From: Thermoanaerobaculia bacterium
GTDB lineage: Bacteria; Acidobacteriota; Thermoanaerobaculia; Multivoradales; UBA5704
Assembly (NCBI GenBank): GCA_036275055.1
Contig: DASUEN010000222.1
Coordinates: 26,498 to 90,497, forward strand
Reading direction: 5' to 3'
DNA length: 64,000 nt
The translations under genes were made by a program, and so were the position numbers. This document shows, piece after piece, positions 45,064 through 59,866 of this stretch. Each line of letters starts with the position of its first letter. Within the stretch, counting starts at the first letter, position 1. The notes below the pieces were generated by a model. It was not told the DNA's origin. It made no database searches and saw nothing but the letters and a program-made list of their open reading frames with translations.

Positions 45064-48000
45064 TTACCCACGCCGCTCCTGGCGGATCGACTGCTCGATC
45101 TGATCCCGGCGGTCCCAATAGGCGCTCAAAGCGGGTTCTTCTTTGATCAACGGCTCGATCCTTTCTAGGAGGGCGAGATATTCCGATGGATTCAATCCCA
45201 GAGTCTGAGACCTCGTGCGGAGCAGGAGATCTTCCTGTTGGTGCGGTGATGACTTTTCGAGGACGCTTTGCCACTCGGAGGGCCTAAAGGAGCGCATTGG
45301 AAGATGGCGCCGCAAGACGCGCGCCGTGGGCCGGGCAATCGCAGCGATCGACGCCCCCAGGAAGAGGGCGAGGATCGCGATGATAAGGTACCGGGAAATC
45401 GACCGGAACAGGTCGACGTTGAAAATGATCAGGCCCGCGACGATCAAGTGAATCGCGCCTATGATCAGCTTGTCGTAACCAGGAAATCCGATGTCGCTAA
45501 CGGCCTCCCGTGAGATCTTTTTCAACCAGACTGCGCCCCCGGAGAGAGAATGGATAAAGCGCTCCAATCGTTTGGGGAGGTAACGGCCCGTGAGAAGCCG
45601 ATAGACCAGCCAGCAGGCTAGGAGCAGACCAGTGAGCACGAGAAGCTCGGAAGTACCCTTCGCGTAGGGCAGCCCCAAGAGCCGGCAGAGCCAGACCGCG
45701 AGATCGTGAAGCTTCCGGCTCCCGAAGACGATAGCGAAGGCAAGCGCTGCGCTGCCTGTCACAATACCGATCAACGCGCCGAAGAGTCCCACCGAGAGGC
45801 GATGGCATTCCTCCCAGGGGAGCTTCAAGATGGCACCGGTGTTGTAACCTGAATGCCTCCAGCGCCGGGTAGAGAAGGAATAGCCGGCGAGGGTGCCGAG
45901 ATGGGCCAGGGCAGGGATCGGAATCAGGGCGATGCAAGCGGCGATGTAAAATCCCCCGAAAAATGAATCCAACGCGCCGAGCTTCCATCGCAAGAGATCC
46001 GGCAAAGCCTGAGAGAGGCCAAGACCGAGGCCCGCACTTCCAAAGCAGAAGAATCCCACGATGATGGGCCGGTATCTCAGCGAAAGACCCATCGTCAAAA
46101 GTACGGCAACGACCTGAGGGAGCAAGGATTCTCCTGGTTGAACATGGGCCAGGCCGCCGAGGATCTTCAGGATCCCCGCGTCGTGAGTGGAGCGAAGCAG
46201 GAAGAGGGTTGTCTCGGTCAGGGCGCACGCCGCAGCCAGCACGATTCCCAGATGAAGCAGGCCGAACGCCGTGGCCACCCCGAAGGTTAGCCATGGCTTC
46301 AGCCTACGGTTCTCCTTCGCGGCTTTGGCAAAGGCCAGGAAGCGTGCGAAGAAGGAGTTGTCCGCGAGAGCGAGCCCCATCTGCGTGGCGAAGTCCGCTC
46401 CTCCGGCGTAAGGCTCCTGTTGGGATGCGAGGACGATGAGAGCCTGGTTCCGTACCCACTTCACGGGAGATTGCAAAAGTTTTTCGAGCGAGCTCTGAAG
46501 ATCGATCTCCGCGAGGTTCCGGCAGGAGCGCATCATCTTGACCTGGGTTATGGGGCGGCCCTGTTCCGCGATGGTCTCGACGGCTTCCTGCAGGCAGGGG
46601 CGAAGGCGCTCCCGCACGGCTTGCGACCTGCTGGCGCCGTGACGGACCAGACGGGCGCCGAGCTCGACCCGGTCGCCGAGCAGCGACTCCCGCTTGTACC
46701 GGGTCTCTCTTCCTTCTTCCCGATGGAGACTCTGCCATCTCGGCTCGTACGGCTGATGGAGCTCCGGCGTGATCTCTTTGATCGAGTCCGCGAGGGTTGT
46801 CACGCCCTCTTCGGCTCCCCCCATCAATACCAAGTTGACCATCGTCTCCTGCCAGCGGGGAGCGTCGAGCTTGACGAGCCACTCGATGGGAGGAGTGGCC
46901 TTCTGGATCCAGAGGGCCGCGAAATATTCCTGGAAGCGATGGTGCGCGAAACGGACCAGGTGGGGCCGCTCCGGAAGGGATTCCGCCAGCACGCCGCAAG
47001 ACCTGCCCGCCCGGATCAACGACTGCAAGCGTTCGATCTCTCCGGAACCGGCGGACTCTTCGATCAGATCCTCCACACCTGCCGCCGTGCCAAGGTTCCT
47101 GTCCGTAATGACGAAGGCGATTCGAGCCCATGCCGCGAAGGCTTCATTCCGGCTCGGGAAAGGCAGGCCTTCCTCCTCGCTTTCCTGCTGCTTGCGCTCG
47201 AAGCTCCGTTCGTACAGATAACCGAGCAGTTGGGTGCGCGACGTGGGCCAGGTCTTTTCCGCTTGCAGGAACAGACAAAGGAGCCAAAGGGTGAAAGGAT
47301 TAGTGGCATCAACGGTCAGCTCTCCCGCTGCCAAGCGCCGGGCGAGGCGGGGGAGGGGCCAGATCGTGCCGTCGATCTCCAGGCTCGGGACCCTTAGGAA
47401 ACGGCGCAGGTAGAGAGCGATCTGCTCGCGGTCGAAGGCGAGGAGAACCAGCCGCCGGTGAATGAACGAAGGGCTGAAGTCCGCGATCCGGCAGGAGAAA
47501 AGAGTCCGGGTGCGACCGCTCCGCGAGCCTGCGAAGACGCTCAGAGCCTCGGTGTGCTCGTTGTACCGGTCCCGGCTCATCTCGTCCATGCCGTCGAAGA
47601 GGAGGACCAGCCGGCCCTGCCGGTCGAGAGCGTCGATCCAGGGACGGATTCTCTCGGGAGCGGAGCGTTTGACGTGATCGAGCACTTCCTCCGGCCCTAC
47701 GCGGCCCTCCACATGGAACTCACCCAGCCGCACGAAGACGACGACCGAGGGGAAGACTCGCCGCACCTCGGATTTGAGCAGATCCCGAGCCGCTTCCTGG
47801 AGCGTCATCGTCTTGCCGCTGCCCGGGTCGCCCAGCAAAACGAGAGGGTCCGGACTTCTGAGCAGTTTCTCGACGAGATTCCTGACCGGCCGGCTTCGAC
47901 GATCGAGGGCGGCGATCTGCGCGCTCGCGGAATCCCCACCCTCCGACCGGCCCAGCACCTGGCGGACGAGCAATTGCACGGGCCGTTCGAAAGGATCGTT

Positions 48001-48678
48001 GGACTGCTCGTCCGCGGCCCCTTGGGGTACGTTGCGCGCGGCGAGTGGCAGATACTCCTTCAGCCGGGTTTTCCTTTGAATCTCGTTCTGGATGTGCGAG
48101 AGGGAATCGCAGAGGTAGCCCTGGATCTCGGCTGCTTCCGGCGGCTCGGGCAGGGTTCCCAACCGAGTCAAATCCGAATGAAGCCGAGGGAAGAGGCGAT
48201 CCAGCAGATGGCGGATCAGCCCAGGCCGGACGAGAGAGTAGGAACGGATTTCCGGAGAAGCTCCCTTCGAGCGCAAACGGTCGAGGATCAGCGAGGCGAT
48301 ATCTCCCGGACTGTAACCTTGAATACCGACCCAGCCATCGATCGTGAGAAGTCCGGAAATAGGTGCTTCGTCGAAACGGAGCAGCAGAATCCGATCGGGA
48401 CGTTGTTTCTTGATGATTTCCCTGACCACTCTCCACTCGACGCCGCAGCACCACTCGCCGGCGGCATAGTCCGCGCTCAGAAAGGCTACGATCAGGGGCG
48501 ACTTCTCATAGATGGATTGGAGATAGACGTCCAGATCCGGCCGGCCCAGCTCGGCTTCGTGATCTCGATCGTAGAAAACCTGGCCTTCGCCGAGAGATCC
48601 TTCCAGCAGGTTGGCGACTTTCGAGACGACGTCGCGCTGCCTGCCGGCAAACGAGAGGGCGACAAGGGGCGGAGACAT
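45064..48678 (-). CDS. TIR-NACHT (STAND NTPase) protein with HEAT-like region and C-terminal multi-pass transmembrane domain
   Basis: 1204 aa. N-terminal TIR ALSFAGRQRDVVSKVANLLEG..VFYDRDHEAELGRPDLDVYLQSIYEKSPLIVAFLSADYAAGEWCCGVEW. Walker A LLGDPGSGKTMTL. Walker B RLVLLFDGMDEM. C-terminal about 400 aa holds about 8 predicted TM helices. GC is lower than flanking housekeeping DNA. Confidence 0.75.
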   Translation of the reverse strand: MSPPLVALSFAGRQRDVVSKVANLLEGSLGEGQVFYDRDHEAELGRPDLDVYLQSIYEKSPLIVAFLSADYAAGEWCCGVEWRVVREIIKKQRPDRILLLRFDEAPISGLLTIDGWVGIQGYSPGDIASLILDRLRSKGASPEIRSYSLVRPGLIRHLLDRLFPRLHSDLTRLGTLPEPPEAAEIQGYLCDSLSHIQNEIQRKTRLKEYLPLAARNVPQGAADEQSNDPFERPVQLLVRQVLGRSEGGDSASAQIAALDRRSRPVRNLVEKLLRSPDPLVLLGDPGSGKTMTLQEAARDLLKSEVRRVFPSVVVFVRLGEFHVEGRVGPEEVLDHVKRSAPERIRPWIDALDRQGRLVLLFDGMDEMSRDRYNEHTEALSVFAGSRSGRTRTLFSCRIADFSPSFIHRRLVLLAFDREQIALYLRRFLRVPSLEIDGTIWPLPRLARRLAAGELTVDATNPFTLWLLCLFLQAEKTWPTSRTQLLGYLYERSFERKQQESEEEGLPFPSRNEAFAAWARIAFVITDRNLGTAAGVEDLIEESAGSGEIERLQSLIRAGRSCGVLAESLPERPHLVRFAHHRFQEYFAALWIQKATPPIEWLVKLDAPRWQETMVNLVLMGGAEEGVTTLADSIKEITPELHQPYEPRWQSLHREEGRETRYKRESLLGDRVELGARLVRHGASRSQAVRERLRPCLQEAVETIAEQGRPITQVKMMRSCRNLAEIDLQSSLEKLLQSPVKWVRNQALIVLASQQEPYAGGADFATQMGLALADNSFFARFLAFAKAAKENRRLKPWLTFGVATAFGLLHLGIVLAAACALTETTLFLLRSTHDAGILKILGGLAHVQPGESLLPQVVAVLLTMGLSLRYRPIIVGFFCFGSAGLGLGLSQALPDLLRWKLGALDSFFGGFYIAACIALIPIPALAHLGTLAGYSFSTRRWRHSGYNTGAILKLPWEECHRLSVGLFGALIGIVTGSAALAFAIVFGSRKLHDLAVWLCRLLGLPYAKGTSELLVLTGLLLACWLVYRLLTGRYLPKRLERFIHSLSGGAVWLKKISREAVSDIGFPGYDKLIIGAIHLIVAGLIIFNVDLFRSISRYLIIAILALFLGASIAAIARPTARVLRRHLPMRSFRPSEWQSVLEKSSPHQQEDLLLRTRSQTLGLNPSEYLALLERIEPLIKEEPALSAYWDRRDQIEQSIRQERRG

Positions 48679-48723
48679 GGCTCGGGAACCTACTCTGGGA
48701 ACCGCGGCTTGTCCACACGGCGC

Positions 48724-48948
48724 CTAAACATCGAGATAGCTTCCGAACCGCTTCACCAGCTCCCGGATGAAGCTCCACTCCTCGGCGGAGGGATCGGCGA
48801 GGACGCCGTTGAAGCGCCAGCCGGCTTCGTAGCGCCGCAGCATGTCGAGCGGCTCGAGGTCTCGGTACTTGCAGTCGAACCAGGAAATGCTCTCCAGGAA
48901 AGGCAGTCGCTCAGGGATGGCGATCTCGAAGACGGGTCCGGCGGCCAT
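48724..48948 (-). CDS. small hypothetical protein (74 aa) immediately upstream of the TIR-NACHT gene
   Basis: ORF MAAGPVFEIAIPERLPFLESISWFDCKYRDLEPLDMLRRYEAGWRFNGVLADPSAEEWSFIRELVKRFGSYLDV. Same strand, 12 nt after the upstream small gene. Confidence 0.4.
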   Translation of the reverse strand: MAAGPVFEIAIPERLPFLESISWFDCKYRDLEPLDMLRRYEAGWRFNGVLADPSAEEWSFIRELVKRFGSYLDV

Positions 48949-48960
48949 GGGAGCATGGTA

Positions 48961-49290
48961 TCAGGTTCTGGCCGCCTTCAGGGTGCCGAGCGAAGTCAGG
49001 ACGCTCTGCGTTACGTCCCGGCCACCGTGGAAGTTCACCCAGACGGACTGGATGGTGTAGATCGGCCCCCAGGGGATTCCCCACCAGCCGGCGAGAAGGG
49101 AGAGCAGGGTGAAGCCGAGCCCTTGGGTTACGGCACTCTCGTTGGGGCGGACGTAATAAATGTCCGACGGCCGCTTGAACGTGATCACCAGTACCGAGAT
49201 GCAATATTGGTAGATCACGAACTTCGCGCCATGCTGAACCTCGAGTTGGATCTGTTCCTTCGTCGCTCCTTCGAGTCCCTTGATTTGCAT
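48961..49290 (-). CDS. small hypothetical protein (109 aa), first gene of putative 3-gene operon
   Basis: ATG 49290 with AAGGGGGA SD on minus. MQIKGLEGATKEQIQLEVQHGAKFVIYQYCISVLVITF...GWWGIPWGPIY. Confidence 0.45.
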   Translation of the reverse strand: MQIKGLEGATKEQIQLEVQHGAKFVIYQYCISVLVITFKRPSDIYYVRPNESAVTQGLGFTLLSLLAGWWGIPWGPIYTIQSVWVNFHGGRDVTQSVLTSLGTLKAART

Positions 49291-49541
49291 GCCCGGTCCC
49301 CCTTCTCAGTAGAGATGGATGGATCTCGTAGCACCTCACCGCGCGGCAGCGTGCAGCGGTGCCATCCGGCTGAGGCCAGTGTTATACGATTCCACATCTG
49401 ACTTTTGTTCATTGGTGCCACTTTTAGAATCCTCGGCCGGCGTCCTCTCTGGTTTCGCTGCTGGTTTCTCAGTCTTGCCTTATCTGTAGGCTCCCCGCCT
49501 CTGCCTTGCCGCCACCCTTTCCAACCACTCTTTTTCCAACG

Positions 49542-50285
49542 TTATGGCCGTGAGCGGTGGGGCCGCGCTTTTTGCGGTGCCGTCCGCTCGACGACCGGAG
49601 TTGGGCGCCCATTGTTCCCGAATCTCCAGAGGAAATACCCGCTTCCCCTCTGTACCTCTTCAAGCGGCAAGACTCGCTTGTAGTAGCTGACCAGATGTCT
49701 TAGTTCATGCTTGAAGAGTTGTTCTGCTGAGGGATCGCTGGGCTGATCGTCTGGCGCAGAATCGAACTGGAGGGGTACCGGCTGCATTACTGCAGCGTGC
49801 AGGCCGATCTTCTGCTGTAGGTATTCGGCGAGTGCTTTCGTGGCCTGGATACCAAGGCCGTTACCGGCGTACGAGGGACGCACCTCAAGCAGATGCATAA
49901 ATGCGATCGGTCCCAATCGAAGCATGCTAGTCACGTCTAGCTTGCGGGCGCTGAACAGAAGCGCGGCGAAATCGCAAAGTTCTTGGCTCTGCGCGTCACA
50001 GGCGTCGAAGAAGGTCCACCGGCTGACCTCTGCGTTCTCCTCAGTCTTCGCGAATATGTACCAGTGGAGATAACCTACGGCGACGCCATTCTGAGAATCG
50101 CGGATCTGCCCTTCGACCTCTTGAATTGAGATATCGTCCTCAAGCTCGTTCTCGATGTGAGCCAAATACCAGTTAAGGATTAGCCCAGGAGCAACGCTGA
50201 GCCTTTTGGAGCCGCGCTGTGGCGGAAGTTGCTCCCGTCGGTAGAACCCCAAGTGGTTACGCGAAGCAAGACGGGGGCTATTCAT
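49542..50285 (-). CDS. hypothetical protein, possible GNAT-family acetyltransferase
   Basis: 247 aa. VRPSYAGNGLGIQATKAL resembles the GNAT acetyl-CoA motif (Q/R-x-x-G-x-G/A). Lower-GC region. Confidence 0.4.
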   Translation of the reverse strand: MNSPRLASRNHLGFYRREQLPPQRGSKRLSVAPGLILNWYLAHIENELEDDISIQEVEGQIRDSQNGVAVGYLHWYIFAKTEENAEVSRWTFFDACDAQSQELCDFAALLFSARKLDVTSMLRLGPIAFMHLLEVRPSYAGNGLGIQATKALAEYLQQKIGLHAAVMQPVPLQFDSAPDDQPSDPSAEQLFKHELRHLVSYYKRVLPLEEVQRGSGYFLWRFGNNGRPTPVVERTAPQKARPHRSRP

Positions 50286-50901
50286 GAATCTGAAACCTTA
50301 AGGTGGCGCCGAACGTCTCAGAAGCTCACCGGCGACGACCGCACTATAGTGCGTGCTTGGCGGCGAAGCGATCTTGTCGCGAGATCCCCAACACCGTCCC
50401 GCTTCTCTCTCCCACTCTCCGGCTCCTCGAGTTCACGCCGCCACCAAAGCCGCACGAAAGGCATTCTACGAAATCTACGCCGCTTTCGTCAGCACTTTCC
50501 GTGAGGCGTCTGAGCGGCTGAGGCACGGTGATCGCAATGCGCCGTTCCCAGTCGGAAGCTTCCCGCCGGCCCTGCCCTTCGTGGCCGGATAGCAGCATCG
50601 CCGCCACTCTTTGACAGCCTCGTCGGCCGCCGAGGGCCACTCCTACGAGCTGATTCGCTCGCTTGAGTGGAGGTGTGCCCATTTCGGCCCGAAGTGGCTC
50701 GCTCCGGCCGCTGCCAGCACCCAATCCGCAGGTCCAAGCCCCGCACCAGCCGCGAAATCGTCTTGGGTTTCTAAAACTACGCTGGCACTTTTTACTCCGG
50801 GCACCTGCTATGCACTTCACCTTATTGACTCCCGCGCCATACCGAGAGATGCAATCGCTATCGAGAGTACTCCTGACGCACCTGAAGTTACCCGTGCGAG
50901 G

Positions 50902-53265
50902 TCACTTCCCAAGAAATATCTTGAGAGCACGCAAGAATGGTGCACCGTTCTCACTCTTACTAGAAGTCAGTGCCTGAAAAAAATCGCGATGCTTCCGCGT
51001 TTTCTGCACGCCCAGAGTTCGGAAGAACTCCAGTGCTACGCGTTCGGCAATCAAATCGCACGTCTGTCTCGCTTCTTCTGACAGAACTACTCCGTTTCTG
51101 TCTGCGGTCAAGGGCAATGCAAGAGGCGGAATGATGTTGATGTCGTAAGTGACAGGCAACGGGAAAGGCACAGTAGGCGGCTCTGAGTTGTGCGACCACG
51201 TAGAGCGCGATGGAAACAATGAATGACGCACCGTGAATCCATGCTGGCTCCAGCGTCCGGTAGAAGACGCATGAATGGAATAGCCATGGCTGATGCCTTC
51301 CTTGCTGGTGCGATCAACGTGCACATGCTCGATCGCCGACCATACATGACGGAGGCGGTCCGAGAGGTCCTCGCCATCCTCGCCAAATTCTTCCTCAAGG
51401 AACACCTCGTTAGTGAGGCCAGAAAGAAAATGAACACGCACTTCACCTTCAATCCCACTCTTCGGATCAAGCACAACGTCGACGTACGAGCAGCGTTCAT
51501 ACTCGTCACCCGCGCGTTGCACTGCCCAGCCTTGGGACAGTTGCGACGTTGCGCCATCGGGCTCGGCGACCTGAATGAGAACGTGCGTATGCGGAGCCAG
51601 AACCGCGACCGTAGAACTTAGCGTTGGCGTATCTTTGATACCGGACTTGAGCCACAGTTGCTTCGGGTCGGCGGATAAACGAACGGAGATATGCGTGCCC
51701 GGCGAAGCACGAGCGCTTTTATTGAACCAGAACAAACTGCCTTGGCTAGCGACCTGAATCGCAAGCGGCGTCGTATTGTTACCTATGCGTCGCGTGTCAA
51801 CCTCAAGCAGGTCTCCCACCATAAACACCGACAGAATACCGATCCCAAACTGAGAGACCGGCTTAAACTCCAACCCTACGCGTGCTCGGTGCTGCAAAAA
51901 CTCGCTAGACGTGTAATAGCTCCGGCCGACTCGCGCGAAGTAGTTGCGCACGATGGGTTCATCCATGCCCATGCCGTTGTCTTCTACGTCCATATACCAG
52001 TAACCGTCGCTCTGCCTACAACTCACTCGCACGATGGGCTCATACGGGCCGAGTTCAGGCTGGCGCCGGTGCAAAGCATCCCGGTGCCGACACGAATCTA
52101 CCGCATTTTGAAGCAACTCACGTAAAAACAGAATTGGCGTTCGATATAGATTCAACCCCATGAGGAGGCTGGTGATACGATCCTCATCCAACGAGAACCC
52201 GATATCGAGATACGTATACCGCGGCCCAGCCGGTCCGAACTCGGCACGAACGTCTACGGTCGAAACTTCCAGAGGTAAGTCTAGAGCATAGTGCGCCGAC
52301 AGAGCGTTCACGGCTGGGTCGTGCATGCCAGCAAGCACGCTGCGCACACCTCGAAGTTCCCGCTCGATCATTCGCACAAAGTCTCGGACACACTTCTCGA
52401 TGACCGGGTCTGAGCACTGTGCAGCAAATGCTATTCGCGTCGGCTGAATGTCCCAGGCCGTAATGGCTCGATGCTTCTTCCACTCTCTCACGCTTACCGA
52501 GTCACGGATCCCAAGGTGCTCAAACAGGACGGCCGGAGTGCGCTTGGGGTCGAAGTCCAGAATATCGGCGAGCCGAAGCACGCAAGCAACAAAACGCCAG
52601 TTGCAATACTCGCCACCCGCACGGACGAGTTCGCGCGCGGGTATCGCGTTGACGGAGGACGCGTCTTCATTATGACTGAAGCAGACATCTGCTAGCCGGC
52701 TGGTAAAGTTATAGTTGTCGTAGACGAGTTTGTTGCCATAGCTCTCAAAGAGCAGCTTGCTAGCGCGCGCAGCATGAGTTCTACGCAAGTACTCAACGAG
52801 AAGTCCAGCCTCGATCTCCTGAGCCTCGAAGTGACGCTCGGCATGCCTAAGGGAAGCTTGCCGCTTCAGGAGCCCTGGATATGCTTCTCGAAGCGCGAGG
52901 TACTGCTGTTTTTCCTCTATCGTCGGGTCTGCGTCTGAGGAGAGGAGCGCACGCACCTCAGCATCCGACGGCGCCATCCCAATATCATGGTAGGCCGCAC
53001 TCAATATCAGCGCAGCAAGTTCAAGAGCATCCAATTTGCTGAGCGTGCGCTCAGGAATGACGCGTCCCATGAGCCTGACGACCTCAACCAGATGCACCTC
53101 GTCATGCAAGGTGTACTCTGGCATATGCTTCACAACCGTCTTGGTCCGCTGGATGGCGTCGTCAAAGCATTCTTCGACGGTGAGCAGCAGTCGATTGGCG
53201 GCGCGGTCGTCGCTAGCCTTCGTAGCCAGGAGTTGGTAGAGCGTAAGGTCGCGCAGGGTGGACAT
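50902..53265 (-). CDS. HD-domain phosphohydrolase fused to GHKL/HATPase_c (Hsp90-like) ATPase
   Basis: 787 aa. HD: YTLHDEVHLVEVVRLM ... AALILSAAYHDIGM. Bergerat fold: LRELLQNAVDSC (N-box), MDVEDNGMGMDEPIVRNYFARVGRSYY (G1), QFGIGILSVFMVGD (G2). Low-GC island. Confidence 0.75.
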   Translation of the reverse strand: MSTLRDLTLYQLLATKASDDRAANRLLLTVEECFDDAIQRTKTVVKHMPEYTLHDEVHLVEVVRLMGRVIPERTLSKLDALELAALILSAAYHDIGMAPSDAEVRALLSSDADPTIEEKQQYLALREAYPGLLKRQASLRHAERHFEAQEIEAGLLVEYLRRTHAARASKLLFESYGNKLVYDNYNFTSRLADVCFSHNEDASSVNAIPARELVRAGGEYCNWRFVACVLRLADILDFDPKRTPAVLFEHLGIRDSVSVREWKKHRAITAWDIQPTRIAFAAQCSDPVIEKCVRDFVRMIERELRGVRSVLAGMHDPAVNALSAHYALDLPLEVSTVDVRAEFGPAGPRYTYLDIGFSLDEDRITSLLMGLNLYRTPILFLRELLQNAVDSCRHRDALHRRQPELGPYEPIVRVSCRQSDGYWYMDVEDNGMGMDEPIVRNYFARVGRSYYTSSEFLQHRARVGLEFKPVSQFGIGILSVFMVGDLLEVDTRRIGNNTTPLAIQVASQGSLFWFNKSARASPGTHISVRLSADPKQLWLKSGIKDTPTLSSTVAVLAPHTHVLIQVAEPDGATSQLSQGWAVQRAGDEYERCSYVDVVLDPKSGIEGEVRVHFLSGLTNEVFLEEEFGEDGEDLSDRLRHVWSAIEHVHVDRTSKEGISHGYSIHASSTGRWSQHGFTVRHSLFPSRSTWSHNSEPPTVPFPLPVTYDINIIPPLALPLTADRNGVVLSEEARQTCDLIAERVALEFFRTLGVQKTRKHRDFFQALTSSKSENGAPFLRALKIFLGK

Positions 53266-53546
53266 TTGAAGCGAGCTTACAGCAACGCTGCCATGCCACG
53301 CAACTTCAACGATCGCTGATCCGTCGAGCGGAGAGGGCGCGCTGCCGCCTTACGCGGTCGACTCGTGACCCGCGCTGCGGCCCCCCGATGCGTTCAAAGA
53401 ATTCCCATTTTGACGGCGATAGCCGCGCCACCTGGGGCAACCGTGTCGGCCGGTCATGCCAGGCTGGGAGTTCAACACCTCGTCCGCCCAACGCCTTGAC
53501 GCCTCACCGATGGACGGCGGAGACGGCCGCTCGGTGCAGGCGGGGG

Positions 53547-54260
53547 TTAAGCGGTGCCACGGCCTCGACTTGCGCCGGTATGCTGAAAGTTGTATAGTGT
53601 CTTTCGGCTAGGAAGAAGCTCTTCTGGGTAGGCTCCACCCTCCAGGATCTGCGAGCTTTCCCAGAAGCTGCCAGACGCCTCGCAGGCCATGAGCTGCACC
53701 TGGTTCAACAAGGGCTTGATCCGGATGACTGGAAGCCCATGACCAGCGTGGGGCCCGGTGTCCAGGAGCTGCGGATACACACCGGCGTGGAGCATCGGGT
53801 CTTCTACTTGGCGAAGTTCGAAGAAGGAGTATAGGTAGTTGCCTTCCAGGTATGGATCACCGCGCAGGTCAATGTAGACCTTTCCTCGTAGGATTGAGGT
53901 AGCCGCCTCTCTCCAGTCACCTGACCGAAGTAGGGGAACGAACTTCCTGTCGTTGCGTTCAGTCATCACTTCGGCCGTAATGATATGTCCTTCGTAGCCG
54001 ACGCCACCTATGCGTCGATCTGACTTCTCTTTGTACTTAGGAGTGCAGACCATGAGGACGAAGTCACTGTCTCGTATTGCAGTTTCCATAAACTGAGGCA
54101 GCTGATCCCCGGGAGCAACCTTCCACTCGTCCAAGATCAGATCGATGCCGTCACTGCGGAGACGGGCACCAAGCCTCTTGACCCATTCCTTATGCTCCTC
54201 GCTATCCCACGAGTACGAGATGAATGCCGTGGGTATCTGCTTAAGAAGTTCGCTTGTCAC
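53547..54260 (-). CDS. TIR-domain protein (bacterial TIR_2-like)
   Basis: GTG start at 54260; no in-frame ATG nearby. AFISYSWDSEEHKEWVKRLGARLRSDGIDLILDEWKVAPGDQL..FMETAIRDSDFVLMVCTPKY = canonical TIR core. 237 aa. Sits upstream of the HD-GHKL gene on the same strand with a 281-nt gap. Confidence 0.7.
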   Translation of the reverse strand: MTSELLKQIPTAFISYSWDSEEHKEWVKRLGARLRSDGIDLILDEWKVAPGDQLPQFMETAIRDSDFVLMVCTPKYKEKSDRRIGGVGYEGHIITAEVMTERNDRKFVPLLRSGDWREAATSILRGKVYIDLRGDPYLEGNYLYSFFELRQVEDPMLHAGVYPQLLDTGPHAGHGLPVIRIKPLLNQVQLMACEASGSFWESSQILEGGAYPEELLPSRKTLYNFQHTGASRGRGTA

Positions 54261-54410
54261 GGTCGACTCTTGTGCCGTTTAACGGGATCGGGCCTGGCGC
54301 CGCCAAGCATCCGCTTGAGGCCCTGTGTTAGGCGTCGGGCCACAAGCGGTGATGTTTTGCATGTGTTGCATTACTGCAACCCGATGCGACCGCGGCTAGC
54401 AGCCGTCATC

Positions 54411-54800
54411 TCAGTGCCTCGTAGAAGGTGTGCACGAAACTGTGCATGCGGAATACGGCGAAAGGCTCTCAAGCTGCCAGCCCTGGTCATAAAGTCTGTA
54501 GACGATCATGAGATTCGTGCTTAGTACGCAAGGTGTACCGTAGAATGGATCCTCGCTTTCGAGGTTGACGGCTGCATAGATCGTATCATTACCGGCGCGC
54601 CGGTTTGTAGATCGCCGTATCAGCTGCCAGCTGCTGACTGCCTGGACGGTGTTGACGTGCGGTATGAACTGGTTGCCGCAGCGGAGTTGCTGCCCGACCA
54701 GGTCAGCTTGCATGCGGGTTTCGCTGGTTAACGGTCTCAGGTAGCCGCAGTCGAGGAGAAGCAACGCGGTTCCTAAGAGAGCAACTTTCCACTGGATCAT
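54411..54800 (-). CDS. hypothetical secreted protein
   Basis: ATG 54800 with GAGGA upstream (track start 54812 is TTG). MIQWKVALLGTALLLLDCGYL signal-like. 129 aa. Confidence 0.35.
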   Translation of the reverse strand: MIQWKVALLGTALLLLDCGYLRPLTSETRMQADLVGQQLRCGNQFIPHVNTVQAVSSWQLIRRSTNRRAGNDTIYAAVNLESEDPFYGTPCVLSTNLMIVYRLYDQGWQLESLSPYSACTVSCTPSTRH

Positions 54801-54889
54801 TGGCGTCCTCAATAAGTCAGAAATAGAGCAGGCGATGATCCCTGCGTTTAGTCTTAAGTTCGCCCTCGGCTACTACGTTGCCGGCCGAC

Positions 54890-56988
54890 GCCGCCGAGTA
54901 GGCCAGGGGCCCTTACGGGCCCCCAGCCCCTCTAAGAACCGTACGTGCGAGTTTCCCCGCATACGGCTCAAGCCTTTCAGAAGGCCGATTGCTCGACCCG
55001 GCTGTTGGGTTGTCCGGGTTGACTCGTTCCATGGCCGTGAGTGGTTTCCTACGAGCTCGGAGCCCGAGCCGGCCTTGACGCTTCCGCAGCCAACGCTGGT
55101 AGAAGTACTCGTCGTAGGCAGGATCGTACTCCCTGGCTTCGGCTCGTATCTTAACATGCCGGCGAATCGGCATGCTACTCACCCGAAACAGGTCCAGAGA
55201 CCCCCAGGTCCCGTCCCGGTTCCGGAGAGGCGCCGTGAAGGTCCACCGACCGGAGGGCTCGATGCGGAAGTATTTCTGTCGCACCCAGCCTTTCCCCTTG
55301 GTGGGGTGCCTTCTCTTCGCCCATCGCCATAGAGCTTCGAAGACGCGCTTATCTACATATCGAAAGGCCCGACTGGAGACCAGGTGTCTCTGGCTGTTCG
55401 CCCAACCTCGCAGCTTGCTGTTGAGCCGGCGAATCAAGTCCAGAGCCGTGGCCGCCTTCTGGGTTCGGATCACTTCCCGGACATTCCGCAGCAGACCCAG
55501 GACGTTGTCCTTCGACGGCCTGATCAGCAGCTTGCGTCCATACTTCCGGACGTTGGCTCCGAGAAAGTCGAATCCAGCCTCGATCTGCGTGATCTTCGTC
55601 TTCTCCTGTGAGAGATTCAGACCCCGTTCTGCGAGGAAGGCAGCTACCGCAGGCAAGACTTTCTCCTCCAACTGCTCTCGCGAGCGGCCGGTGATGACAA
55701 AGTCGTCTGCGTAGCGCACCACGTTGATCTTCGGGCGGAGGTTCCCCTGACGGCGGGAATCCGCCTGCAAGGCCACCGTTTCCAGGCCATCCAAGGCTAG
55801 GTTCGCTAGAACCGGGGAGATGATTCCTCCCTGGGGCGTACCTTCCTCGGTCGAATAGAGGACCGGGCCTTCCATGTAGCCGGCCTTCAGCCATTTCCGC
55901 AGGATGTCGCGGTCCATTTGGACGTTGCCGAGCAGCCAGCGGTGGCTGATCCGATCGAAGCAGGATTCGATATCCCCTTCGAGGATCCACTGGGGAGAAT
56001 CCTCTTTGGCCAACGCACAGTAGCACTGGCCCAAGGCATCGGCGGTTGAACGCCGCGGCCGGAAGCCGTAGGAGTTCAGGTCGGCCTGGGTTTCCGCCAC
56101 CGGAAGCAGCGCCAGCAGGTGAAGCGCCTGCATGGCTCGATCCTTCATCGTAGGGATTCCCAGGGGCCGACGCTTGCCGTTCCTTTTGGGGATGTAGAGC
56201 CTGCGCAGAGGCAGTGGCTTGTAGCCAAACCGCCTCAGAGATCGGGAGGCCTGCATCTTCTGCCGAGGCGTTTTCCAGAGAACCTTGTCAACGCCCGGCG
56301 TACGTTTCCCTTGATTGGAGACAACCCTTCGCACCGCCCAGAGCTTTGCCGCCCATGAGCGGGTGAGGAGCCGCTGGAGAAAGTGGACCTTGCCCCAGCA
56401 CTTCTCGTGTACAGCCTTTGCGATACGCACCTGCAGCCGTCTGACCTTACGGAAGATGGCACGCCAGTCGATGGCGTTCCAGTTCTCTCGCCAGACCGGG
56501 AGTGCACCGGCGTCAAGCGCCTCTCTTTGCTCTCTCCCTTTCCAAGACGGTTCCACAAGCTCTCTCGCAACGAAAGACCTGTCGGACGTGGGCTCACTTT
56601 CGTGCCGGGTAACGTTGAAACCCGTATCCGCCCCATTACAGGACGGCCTTCGCTTCTTCCGACATCCCAAGCCCGCACCTCCGTCAGTTCCCCTCACGGG
56701 TCGCCTTCCCTTTACGGGAGGAGATACAGGGTTACCACGTTCCGCTCCTGAAGTCTGTGCGGGGTTAGGTACCTGCTGTCGACCGGGAAGCGCTGTTGAC
56801 CACGAGGTGGCACCGTTAAATCCACCTCCGGCTTCCGCGCCTTTTGGCTCAAGCTTATCAGCCACTTTAGCTCGTGCTCCATGACGGTCGTTGCACAGGT
56901 TCACATGCGTTTACCCTACCCGCTACCTAGCCATCGCCCGGCTCGTGGCTGCCAGGAGAGCAGGTTCCTCACGGTCCCTGCCCCGCAC
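54890..56988 (-). mobile_element. bacterial group II intron (about 2.1 kb) with intron-encoded RT/maturase
   Basis: 5' end GTGCG on minus strand (complement of plus 56984-56988). Canonical domain V GAGCCGTATGCGGGGAAACTCGCACGTACGGTTC at 54936-54969 (minus). Domain VI hairpin with GTAA tetraloop at about 54895-54930. Domain I-like sequence (GAGCCAAAAGGCGCGGAAGCCGGAGGTGGATTTAACGGTGCC) upstream of the ORF. Confidence 0.8.
54913..56556 (-). CDS. group II intron reverse transcriptase/maturase (IEP)
   Basis: Likely GTG start about 56556 (VEPSWKGREQ... precedes the NWNAIDWRAIFRKVRRLQVRIAKA thumb-0 motif). RT motifs include YADDFVITG; maturase X domain. No En domain. The frame stays open through domain V/VI to 54913. 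The track ORF 54913..56904 over-extends at the N-terminus into domain I. Confidence 0.8.
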   Translation of the reverse strand: MEPSWKGREQREALDAGALPVWRENWNAIDWRAIFRKVRRLQVRIAKAVHEKCWGKVHFLQRLLTRSWAAKLWAVRRVVSNQGKRTPGVDKVLWKTPRQKMQASRSLRRFGYKPLPLRRLYIPKRNGKRRPLGIPTMKDRAMQALHLLALLPVAETQADLNSYGFRPRRSTADALGQCYCALAKEDSPQWILEGDIESCFDRISHRWLLGNVQMDRDILRKWLKAGYMEGPVLYSTEEGTPQGGIISPVLANLALDGLETVALQADSRRQGNLRPKINVVRYADDFVITGRSREQLEEKVLPAVAAFLAERGLNLSQEKTKITQIEAGFDFLGANVRKYGRKLLIRPSKDNVLGLLRNVREVIRTQKAATALDLIRRLNSKLRGWANSQRHLVSSRAFRYVDKRVFEALWRWAKRRHPTKGKGWVRQKYFRIEPSGRWTFTAPLRNRDGTWGSLDLFRVSSMPIRRHVKIRAEAREYDPAYDEYFYQRWLRKRQGRLGLRARRKPLTAMERVNPDNPTAGSSNRPSERLEPYAGKLARTVLRGAGGP

Positions 56989-57411
56989 GCTTGCGCGTGC
57001 CTCTGTACATTGTCAGGGCCGCTCTTTATTCAGGCCCCTAGGTTCACCCGGTGGTACGGGTGGTTTCACCTCCTACTTCGAGAGAAACAACTTCATATTA
57101 AGAGCGACATTGTGTCGCAGTAACGCCTCTGAAGCTCACCGGGCGGCAAGTGCGCAAAGCGCGGTTGCCGCCCGGTGTAGCGCTGTGGTTGGCCGTCCCT
57201 CCTTGAAACTGCCTAATAATTGCACAGACTGCTGGCTTTTCAAGGAGAGGTTAGCCTTTCTGTATATGGAATTGTTGGTCACCGATTCCCAAGTTTTAGT
57301 TCTTGGAGAGTACGTCCAACGTTGTTAGACTTAAAGTCCTCAGCCCGTTTGCTTACATCTGCTGCCACCATCTTCCATTGCTTGTCGAACGGGTCATATT
57401 TAAGGAGAACT

Positions 57412-57993
57412 TTAAGGCGCCGGTCCCGAGCATGGTCCCAACCTCGGGCTCTCGAAGGCCGCTGACATTTCATCCGGCACGTCGTAAGTATACGTCCCAA
57501 GCACCACTCTATATCGATCCGTTCCCACAACTTCCTCATCGTTGGAAACGATGCTCTCGATCTTTATGGTAGCAACTTTCGTGAACAGCTCATCGAAGTC
57601 GCCATTATGCTTGATAGTGCCGGCCTTACCGCCGCCCTCAGTTAGTTTGATCGTCGCAGTCTTCCTGACACCGCTCTGAGTAAGGCTGAACCAATCGTTC
57701 CAACCGCTGAAATTCTGCGTCAGATCCTTAACATTGCCGATAGTGATCACGCCTTTCTTTGCAAAGGCTTGGTACAAAGGCCACTCACTGATAGATTCTC
57801 GGCCTTTCGCTGCGTCTGGATTCTCAGCGACGAACTTCACCTCACCCAGCATCAACCCAACGTCTGGCTTATTCCAGAGATTCTCTATCAAATTCCGTGC
57901 TTCGCCATCTCCAAGGGCATCGGACCGGGAACAATAACTCAGGGCGACTGCGCTAACAACAATACCTACCAGGCGTAAACTTCGTCCAATCAT
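57412..57993 (-). CDS. hypothetical secreted/lipoprotein-like protein
   Basis: ATG 57993 with AGGAGA SD on minus. MIGRSLRLVGIVVSAVALSYCS signal. 193 aa. Low-GC island. Confidence 0.45.
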   Translation of the reverse strand: MIGRSLRLVGIVVSAVALSYCSRSDALGDGEARNLIENLWNKPDVGLMLGEVKFVAENPDAAKGRESISEWPLYQAFAKKGVITIGNVKDLTQNFSGWNDWFSLTQSGVRKTATIKLTEGGGKAGTIKHNGDFDELFTKVATIKIESIVSNDEEVVGTDRYRVVLGTYTYDVPDEMSAAFESPRLGPCSGPAP

Positions 57994-58435
57994 CGTATCG
58001 TCTCCTGTACAACTGAACTCGTGGCCAACCTCAAGATCAACTGTATCCGGCTCCTCCCCAATGCCTTCCCGACAGTCTCCACGTCTGCTCAGGCTACCGG
58101 TGAATGGGATGTATATCATTCATTCTATGGAGTGTAAGCATTGTACACCGATCCCTAATCCTCGTCAACGTTGGTTGGGTTGTCGGGTTGGAGCCTGGCC
58201 GCGCGGAGCGGCACAAAACTTAGCCAGACCGGTTTCCGGTGGCCTATTCTACTGATGAGAATGAAGTTAGCACCGCCCGTACCGGCTAAGCGGTTCGAAG
58301 TGCGGGGCGAGTGGAACGTTATCCGACAAAGGAGTGTCGGGTTTGCAGCTCATGGTTGGTGCTAAGCTCAATGGAATGAGACTCATCGGCTGAGCTGGCG
58401 CGATGATTGACCGACACGACGCCTGTCGGCTAAGG

Positions 58436-58739
58436 GCTCGTCACAGAATAACTGTGCCAGTTTGCGTCCGGCCCAACGGGCCTGGATACCTTAGCCCAGG
58501 GCCGAGGCCGAAGGCCGATGCCCTGGGAAAAAGGCGCCCCATCGGTGCGGCCTGAAGGGCCGCAAATCGTTTCGACAAGAAGAGTATCGCTGCCCTTCAG
58601 GCCGCACTGCTTTGGGATCCTGCCACCCAGGGCGTCGGCCTTCGGCCTCGGCCCTGGGCTAAGGTATCCAGGCCCGTTGGGCCAGACGCCCTAGTAGGAC
58701 TGAGCTCCGGGGAACTGGCGCAGTTATTCTGTGACGAGC
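58436..58739. repeat. about 300-bp near-perfect palindrome: two about 95-115 nt inverted arms (about 95% identical apart from a 22-nt indel) around a spacer with a nested 16-bp IR
   Basis: Arm 1 58436-58527 and arm 2 58627-58739 are reverse complements. The inner IR GTGCGGCCTGAAGGGC / GCCCTTCAGGCCGCAC is at 58544-58607. Each arm also has internal hairpins (CCCAGGGC...GCCCTGGG; GGCCCaacGGGCC). Confidence 0.8.
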
Positions 58740-58809
58740 CCTAAGAGGCCGTCGCCAAGCCGACAGAGGAATGGGAGGGGCCTTTCTCGGCGCGCCAAGC
58801 CGGTCAAGC

Positions 58810-59012
58810 TACAGGATGTCCACGGGGCTCCTTACGCCACGCCCGTCTCGGTTGAGCACGCGGGTGTAGATCATCGTCGTTTTCACGGTCTTGTGACCCA
58901 GGAGCTCCTGCAGGGTCCGGAAGCGGAGCTCGTTGCCTTCGGGACGCCGGCGCTCCCAGGCAATGGCCCTCGGACAGGTTTTGCCGGAATGGACGTTCCT
59001 TGAGGAGGGGTG
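58810..59012 (-). pseudogene. C-terminal remnant of an integron-integrase-like tyrosine recombinase (IntI/XerC-like)
   Basis: The minus frame between two in-frame TAG stops translates to ...[40 protein letters not shown]. This is very similar to the IntI C-terminus (LGHSDVSTTMIYTHVL..GGAGVRSPLD). No start codon, and the upstream 250+ aa are missing. Confidence 0.6.
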
Positions 59013-59132
59013 CTACCCTCCCCTGGCCGCCTCAGGGAGTACGAGGCTCCGGTTCTCTCCTCGTTCCGGGGTCCGAGCTGCGTAGCAAGCTCCCGAGCTC
59101 ATGGGTTGAGGCTCCGCAACAGTGTTCCTGGA

Positions 59133-59360
59133 ACCAAACACATTGTAGGAGCTTCCCAACACATTGTGGTAGCGTTCCCCAACAATGTAGTTCGGCCCAG
59201 CAACAATGTGGTTGGGCTCACCAACAATGTGTTTCGGCCCAGCAACAATGTTGGGGAACCAAAACACATTGTTGCTGGCGCTCCCCACATTGTGTTTTGG
59301 CTCTCCCACAATGGGTCGGGCCCCAGCAACAATGTGTGCAGCCGCTCCAACATTGAGGCG
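59133..59360. repeat. iteron-like array: 11 copies of a 21-bp repeat with (C/A)ACAATGT / ACATTGT core in mixed orientation, perfectly phased
   Basis: Cores at 59140, 59161, 59182, 59203, 59224, 59245, 59266, 59287, 59308, 59329, 59350. Spacing is exactly 21 bp. The ACAATGT and ACATTGT cores are reverse complements of each other. Confidence 0.8.
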
Positions 59361-59458
59361 GGAGGTTTTTTCACCAGGGTGGGACGCTGCACCGACGTGG
59401 GGAAGCCCGCTTCCATTGGGTGCGGCGAGTTTTTCAATGGGATGAAGCGGTGACCGCT

Positions 59459-59866
59459 TCACAGCTCCGAGGATGCTGTGTCGAGTCCTAACTCCAGCTC
59501 CTCTTGAAGCCGCTGGCGCAGCTCGCCGGGTGCGAGGAGGAGGCCGGGATCCTCCGGGGTGGGGAAGAGGGCGACGCGCAGGGCATCTTCCGCCAGCAGG
59601 GGGAGGAGGTCTTCCAGGAGGTCTTCGAGCGCGATCGGGGCCGGCTCGGCGCCTTCCCAGTTGCCGCGGGCACAGGCTCTCGCCAGCTCGGGATGGGGCC
59701 AGAGGGGGAAGGCGTCCATCTCCTTGGACACCACCCAGCCGCGATCGTCCTGGAGCCCCCAGACCTCGTCCCAGTCGGCGGCGAGCTGCACGAGGTGGAC
59801 GGCCCGGTCCGCGGCGGGCAGGGCCTGGAGCGTGCGGAGCTCGCCGTCGCCGGTCTCCCAGCTCAT
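59459..59866 (-). CDS. small acidic hypothetical protein, co-transcribed downstream of the NYN-domain gene
   Basis: 135 aa. MSWETGDGELRTLQALPAADRAVHLVQLAADWDEVWGLQDD... Start 7 nt after the upstream stop. Confidence 0.5.
   Translation of the reverse strand: MSWETGDGELRTLQALPAADRAVHLVQLAADWDEVWGLQDDRGWVVSKEMDAFPLWPHPELARACARGNWEGAEPAPIALEDLLEDLLPLLAEDALRVALFPTPEDPGLLLAPGELRQRLQEELELGLDTASSEL

Follow-up and report, generated by a model that had tools for sequence, protein, structure and literature searches.

At the right-hand edge of an insertion in a Thermoanaerobaculia genome, a short core heptamer recurs every 21 bp beside the remnant of an integron integrase, which raises the question of what such an array is. 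We searched for the answer in the window (the whole 64-kb stretch of DNA that was analysed) and in genome, metagenome, plasmid, phage and protein collections. The array is a non-coding member of a dispersed family of intergenic arrays found in Thermoanaerobaculia and other Acidobacteriota. Most likely it docks a putative DNA-binding protein; that it is a gene, or the origin or centromere of a defunct plasmid, is less likely.

Layout of the array and the insertion that carries it

The heptamer ACAWTGT starts at 59140, 59161, 59182, 59203, 59224, 59245, 59266, 59287 and 59329, all in one exact 21-bp phase, with near-cores in the same phase at 59308 (ACAATGg), 59350 (ACATTGa) and 59119 (ACAgTGT). 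Nine of the 11 ACAWTGT heptamers in the window lie inside the array; the number expected in shuffled sequence is 1.6, and none of 100 shuffles reached 11. In Tandem Repeats Finder, the array has periods of 21 and 42, and its autocorrelation has maxima at lags of 21, 42 and 63 (z = 10-12; z = 12 at lag 21). The exact core spacing given in a preliminary description of this locus is thus confirmed by heptamer positions, Tandem Repeats Finder and shuffles, and the phasing by the autocorrelation that the same description had suggested. The shorter core CAWTG occurs 58 times in the 64-kb window, and all 13 occurrences between 59141 and 59439 fall in a single 21-bp phase.

The array had been described as 11 copies at 59133-59360. 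These copies are real, and they correspond to the best-kept part of the array (59133-59363, with CAWTG at 59141 + 21k for k = 0 to 10), but the array is longer. It has 16 unit slots (59119-59439), of which 13 contain CAWTG, one contains the leftmost in-phase core variant, ACAGTGT (59119-59125; k = -1; repeat family D2), and two are conserved variant units. Together with one decayed unit at its left, the whole element spans about 360 bp (59087-59444), the stretch over which blastn and colinear alignments detect homology to the arrays at two other loci, L262 and L132. Its right-hand end is a five-unit module (59344-59444) that includes two units lacking CAWTG, in the slots centred near 59374 and 59395, and two units with T-runs. 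This module is 80% identical over 101 bp to L262 751-850, is kept en bloc in L262, where a second match lies at 876-975, and is recognisable in both L132 and L007, which share the motif GGCGAGTTTTTCAATGGGATG with the window. The two CAWTG-less units are the same in L262; they are part of the end module and do not reflect random decay. The mixed orientation of the cores, also reported previously, is real but weak: ACAATGT and ACATTGT differ at the central base alone, and this base correlates with the flanks, such that units read as CAACAATGTGG or its reverse complement.

The array is the right-hand terminal element of a strain-specific insertion of about 10.5 kb (48966-59497), which is delimited by breaks in synteny with L118, L120 and L122 and is missing from all seven relatives examined. 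The gene order in these relatives (L118-L123 and L259-L261) is SpoIIE-TonB-NYN-DUF2750-(AbiEi/AbiEii)-YjbQ-VWA-peptidase M19, and the insertion site lies between the last DUF2750 codons and a 74-codon AbiEi-like gene. Within the insertion are TIR and HD-CE/HATPase genes, a group II intron, a 316-bp foldback, the integrase remnant, the array, and orphan ORFs without a family match. The DUF2750 gene (59459-59866, minus strand; Pfam PF11042, E = 3e-24) is the last gene of a conserved NYN-DUF2750 operon; the NYN protein is 100% identical to an NCBI entry assigned to Thermoanaerobaculia, the group to which the MAG of the window belongs. A palindrome read directly from the sequence, GAAGCGGTGACCGCTTC (59444-59460), overlaps the DUF2750 stop codon and lies between this gene and the array, which begins about 15 nt past the stop. 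At the insertion junction (59459-59500), the DUF2750 protein ends in …ELELGLDTASSEL, as compared with …ELELGAP in the relatives (L118 5000-5034). It is precisely at the junction that these codons depart from those of every relative, so the inserted DNA provides the gene with a new C-terminus and stop codon. The integrase remnant is confined to the final 36 codons of an integron integrase gene (58809-58916, minus strand; TIGR02249 positions 279-314 of 315, E = 2.2e-12; Pfam Phage_integrase, E = 6e-4). The neighbourhood is therefore as originally described, with an IntI-like remnant on one side, the NYN-DUF2750 operon to the right, and the array at the edge of a low-GC island that synteny with relatives now identifies as strain-specific. 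In the window, the array just terminates this defence-type insertion.

We note several other features of this region. The defence-type genes at 45064-54260 encode a TIR-NACHT protein (1204 codons), an HD-CE/HATPase protein and a TIR/SEFIR protein, and the NACHT gene stands where the relatives have the AbiEii gene. Between a 235-codon orphan ORF and the integrase remnant lies the single-copy foldback of about 316 bp (58430-58745), which has nested arms that are 94-97% complementary and looks MITE-like; a second copy in the window and a plasmid match were sought and not found. The group II intron (54830-57063, minus strand) contains an RT/maturase ORF (RVT_N, RVT_1, GIIM) and has an Rfam D1-D4 match. 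A group II intron also lies about 370 bp from the array at L101; its RT is only 32% identical to that of the window and its position relative to the array is different, and we rejected the RT as a shared neighbour of the arrays. Lastly, a 77-residue fragment (…SPAPRxHAATK…FPPALPFV) encoded at 50356-50590 (plus strand) is 58% identical to one at L101 3138-3369 (minus strand). It has no match in Pfam or NCBIfam, and it may resemble the C-terminus of Y1/IS200-like transposases.

A dispersed family of related arrays

Homologous arrays occur in related genomes, at least about eight in all among the matches listed, with three arrays in one sample and two in one metagenome-assembled genome (MAG). One of them is at L262, a contig from the same sample as L117, the twin contig of the window. 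This array is colinear with that of the window over 358 bp (74% identity by blastn, range 74-80%). The alignment is unambiguous; besides two 1-bp gaps, it requires a single indel of 21 bp and a duplication of six units, about 126 bp. The L262 array starts 18 nt past the stop codon of an unrelated 132-codon gene. A third array from this sample (L258) has 16 units and adjoins a TPR gene. The 18 units at L132 separate two divergent genes, one for an RlaP nucleotidyltransferase and one for a small secreted peptide, and the array there shares a 66-bp block with the window at 89% identity, with a 42-bp indel. Unit-by-unit diagonal analysis showed that the colinearity between the window and L132 is not unique to one orientation, an ambiguity that results from the quasi-palindromic nature of the units. 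In another Thermoanaerobaculia genome (L033), an array is found between convergent PhoD-like and multihaem cytochrome genes; two array loci (L007 and L101) are found in one Acidobacteriota MAG; and an array on a JGI contig lies about 230 bp upstream of tatA. Where array copies differ by large indels, these comprise complete units (21, 42 and about 126 bp), such that phase is preserved, and arrays that are about 75% identical still retain both phase and cores.

The genes beside these arrays are diverse. We found no neighbour shared among the array loci, the TPR, RlaP, cytochrome and tatA genes being unrelated, and no candidate for a protein that binds the array among the neighbours of the array loci. 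None of the arrays at L258, L262, L132, L033, L007 and L101 has an integrase beside it; the IntI remnant adjoins the array in the window only. Both the window array and that of L262 begin 15-18 nt past a stop codon, in the orientation of the gene, a placement that could reflect a 3'-UTR role or an insertion preference.

At L007 (6141-6380) and L132 (1034-1252), a gene for a small secreted Cys-rich peptide lies downstream, about 95 bp past the end of the array. A sigma-70-like promoter (TTGACT or TTGACA, N17) comes immediately after the array at L132 and L101. In the window, neither such a peptide gene nor such a promoter follows the array, and the peptide gene was dropped as an array partner.

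Unit architecture and models for the array

A matrix built from 45 oriented intact units has full information at CAATG only, with symmetric decay outward and a weak asymmetry at ±4 and ±6 that yields CAACAATGTGG. The site approximates CMACA-W-TGTKG, is palindromic at the level of the consensus, and is embedded in CCnnnCAACAWTGTGnnnGGG; its half-sites vary between CCAAAACACA and CTTAAATACA, the latter being the variant of L007 and L101. Exact CAWTG is kept in 45 of 58 units, while the spacers are near random, with a mean pairwise identity of 0.37. Between the window and L132, differences affect 7% of positions at ±1 and ±2 and about 50% at ±9 and ±10; between the window and L262, the core is only weakly better kept than the outer spacer (14% and 24% differences, respectively; p = 0.10). 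Among the 58 units, we detected no covariation in stems within or between units, and pairing at positions ±5 to ±10 matches the expectation from shuffling (z about 0). With no covariation beyond the core, palindromy belongs to the consensus and not to single units. This is what is expected if independent half-sites are recognised by a dimeric protein that binds double-stranded DNA, and it does not fit hairpins that are under selection as RNA or single-stranded DNA. Both strands of the array do fold far better than shuffles (z = -5.0 and -6.4), and the array may on that account have a role as RNA or single-stranded DNA; strong folding of both strands is, however, a trivial outcome of repeated quasi-palindromes. 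No Rfam 15 family reached its gathering score on the array, the only matches being sub-threshold microRNA noise, and a promoter and terminator scan found nothing at the array and no terminator-like site at its ends.

Each unit directly adjoins the next, so that neighbouring sites are separated by exactly two helical turns and lie on the same face of the duplex. The best-supported model, which we hold with moderate confidence, is that the arrays are a dispersed, lineage-specific family of multi-site platforms for a putative DNA-binding protein. We propose that a dimeric, sequence-specific protein most likely occupies 12-18 sites cooperatively, which would generate a one-sided filament or a wrapped nucleoprotein complex. 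Such a complex would be mechanically akin to a plasmid centromere or iteron set, with no link to a replicon, and candidate roles include local silencing or insulation, or structuring of the chromosome. Cooperative binding of multimers to palindromic sites has a precedent in bacterial regulators: ARG boxes are pairs of operators, 21 bp centre-to-centre, that are bound by hexameric ArgR, and Fur polymerises on extended arrays. Like these operators, the arrays place palindromic sites at two-turn intervals along one helix face, and they would likewise be bound cooperatively by multimers. By contrast, ArgR and Fur operators have 2-4 sites at one promoter, whereas the arrays have 12-18 sites, take no consistent position relative to promoters, and are unrelated in sequence.

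A more ambitious and tentative extension of the platform model, which we consider rather improbable, is that the arrays are cis-elements of a new chromosome-level system of Acidobacteriota, in which a filament-forming or DNA-wrapping protein is recruited to platforms of 12-18 sites. The platforms could then insulate or silence neighbouring genes or incoming DNA, or anchor the nucleoid, as dispersed "centromere-like" elements that would serve no plasmid. Acidobacteriota are abundant soil bacteria in which non-coding DNA is almost uncharted. Long site arrays in such strict phase, dispersed as a family, imply that a dedicated DNA-binding protein exists, along with a nucleoprotein structure of higher order, presumably undescribed so far, and the family offers a concrete bait sequence for finding the putative binding protein.

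The main rival of the binding platform is a REP/BIME- or MITE-like dispersed selfish element, spread by a transposase or by recombination, or a REP/BIME-like element whose effects, if any, would come from hairpins of RNA or single-stranded DNA, such as those of a 3'-UTR stabiliser or a terminator. We regard this alternative as somewhat improbable. REP/BIME elements, like the arrays, are short palindromic units that are clustered, dispersed between genes, often at gene 3' ends, and lineage-specific (PMC3733652); the arrays are also multi-copy and variable in length, their strong folding on both strands would suit hairpins, and those of the window and L262 begin just past a stop codon in the orientation of the gene. 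On the other hand, what defines a REP is a tetranucleotide, GTAG or CGTC, that tags one end of the palindrome (PMC3733652), and the array units have no consistent tag of this kind. They also show no compensatory covariation for any unit- or spacer-level hairpin and no linker motifs, and the array ends lack terminal inverted repeats, target duplications and terminator-like sites. There is no adjacent transposase, of the RAYT or any other type, and neither the strict 21-bp phase nor indels of whole units are properties of REP/BIME elements. Our search of the literature on the motif or on such arrays returned nothing relevant beyond these REP definitions.

An alternative possibility is that the array is a neutral minisatellite, in which a 21-bp unit was amplified by slippage and is now decaying without function. 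In its favour, the core is missing from two unit slots in the window, and most of the other 21-bp ACAWTGT arrays among the matches listed are near-perfect tandem repeats of unrelated families. Nonetheless, exact CAWTG persists in most units amid near-random spacers, the seemingly decayed units are conserved as a module in L262, and homologous arrays that are about 75% identical keep their phase and cores. We consider a minisatellite unlikely.

The origin, iteron or centromere of a decayed plasmid or integrative element, as favoured in the preliminary description, fares worse, and we judge it to be quite unlikely. Its attraction is that iteron sets and repeat centromeres have repeats phased at about 21 bp, and that the array ends a strain-specific insertion beside an integrase remnant. 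Nevertheless, Pfam, NCBIfam and PHROGs searches of the ORFs in the island and its neighbours detected no Rep, ParA, ParB or ParR; there is no DnaA box (TTATCCACA, with up to one mismatch) between 58500 and 60000, no AT-rich stretch near the array, where the lowest GC content in 60 bp is 45%, and no parS-like 16-mer in the window. BLAST comparison of the array with plasmid and phage collections gave no match, viral scans found no contig with a member of the family, and the homologous arrays are found between ordinary chromosomal genes, with neither an integrase nor plasmid genes nearby. The proposal that this is a replication or partition region is accordingly not upheld.

Iterons of theta plasmids are repeats of 17-22 bp spaced 21-23 bp apart; they are direct and asymmetric, and next to them lie a rep gene, an AT-rich unwinding element and DnaA boxes. 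The array shares their unit length and two-turn phasing, and its 21-bp phase is exact, but it lacks the rep gene, AT-rich element and DnaA boxes, and its sites are palindromic in consensus and occur in both orientations. Among repeat-type plasmid centromeres, pSK41 parC has four contiguous 20-bp repeats bound by ParR, R1 parC has ten 11-bp repeats, and F sopC has twelve 43-bp units, each with a palindromic SopB site. The likeness here is to contiguous, helically phased repeats with one dimer site each, which for the array is putative, and the presence of 10-18 units suggests a higher-order nucleoprotein complex, as at these centromeres. Unlike them, the arrays have no par operon, occur several per genome at chromosomal intergenic sites, match no plasmid, and have an unrelated core sequence. 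We conclude that a phased array beside an integrase remnant is not necessarily an origin or a centromere.

Several other candidates were considered and dropped, namely an integron att site, type III toxin-antitoxin RNA repeats, a CsrA-type sponge RNA and a Tn7-like transposon end, because their partner genes are absent and the copy number and symmetry of the arrays do not fit. Integron sites have a functional intI adjacent, and attC is an imperfect palindrome of 57-141 bp at cassette ends; for attI/attC, only the last 36 intI codons are left in the window, and the homologous arrays elsewhere lack an integrase.

Translation of the array and unrelated 21-bp repeats

The least likely explanation, to which we give very little weight, is that the array encodes a protein with a heptad repeat, an xxNxVxG beta-roll, on minus-strand ORF 59462-59013. 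This ORF begins 3 nt past the DUF2750 stop codon, translates into x-[HNY]-[IN]-V-x-G-x heptads, and matches the grass antifreeze beta-roll family of Pfam (PF21300, LbR_Ice_bind) with 40.4 bits (E = 3e-10), above the gathering cut-off of 30 bits. The plus strand of the array matches PF21300 too, however, as do translations of both strands of the related arrays, at 16-38 bits, the sole exception being the plus strand of L033. The match arises artefactually, from the return of xAC-AWT-GTx at each interval of 21 bp, or seven codons, and PF21300 is a reproducible false positive on non-coding 21-bp arrays. Its threshold is passed or approached on both strands at window positions 59013-59462 (minus strand) and 59010-59453 (plus strand), and at L064 1-420. 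The broader lesson is that a curated Pfam threshold can be passed by a non-coding repeat on both strands.

Protein searches and codon-level tests likewise argue against a gene. A word-based search of 5.8 billion proteins with the repeat ORF returned only 1-2 homologues, one of which, P0121, results from reading out of an array into the signal peptide of a genuine downstream gene with an AGGAGG-ATG start of its own; two further array ORFs came from a profile search. Exhaustive HMMER comparison with 1.84 billion representative proteins gave 14 matches at E ≤ 0.001, four of them long multi-stretch proteins; the short ones that were traced (P0121, P0122 and P0126) derive from arrays. The exact product of ORF 59462-59013 is absent from records as a called gene. 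In the arrays at L007, L101 and L033, the NxV frames are interrupted by stop codons. Substitutions show no codon periodicity between the window and L132 (32/101, 37/101 and 28/102 for the three codon positions; p = 0.37), or between the window and L262, where there is no excess at third positions (p = 0.55). After the protein searches, frame check, codon-phase tests and Pfam comparison with other arrays, we dropped the coding repeat. The original view of the array as non-coding, of a protein-binding type, with overlapping ORFs that are just the repeat translated, is upheld by the stop codons, the substitution pattern and the PF21300 matches on both strands; a conserved protein-coding gene with such a repeat, the finding that would have spoken against it, was looked for, and almost no protein homologues were found.

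Lastly, scans of genomes (pattern, four phased ACAWTGT) and metagenomes (pattern, three MACAWTGTK) yielded, among the matches listed, mostly near-perfect 21-bp tandem repeats unrelated to the array family, from Nostocales, Bacteroidota and Ruminococcaceae; a specific 42-bp-spaced pattern had no match in the metagenomes. The Nostocales loci (within L002-L116; for example, L005 6072-6345 and L020 324-680) carry the near-perfect 21-bp repeat TACATTAACAATGTAAGCCGA and variants of it, with at least nine loci in one genome among the matches listed. A Bacteroidota MAG (MFD04780.bin.1.106) has at least six loci (L029, L043, L075, L103, L110 and L111) with 17-39 copies of CGAATAGACAATGTCTCTAAG-type 21-mers. 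In Ruminococcaceae/Clostridia arrays (L068 6201-6494, L134 784-867, L031, L061, L077 and L082), CGCGCACAATGTGCGC and GCGTCACAATGTGCAC alternate, giving a 42-bp super-period, and the arrays at L068 and L134 are followed by a long AG-rich tract. A Verrucomicrobia array (L064 1-420) shares the architecture of the window array; it lies about 130 bp upstream of a 248-codon gene without a family match, and in it six perfect AATTACATCGATGTTCCCGCG units are followed by degenerate GGAACAACATTGTTCC units.
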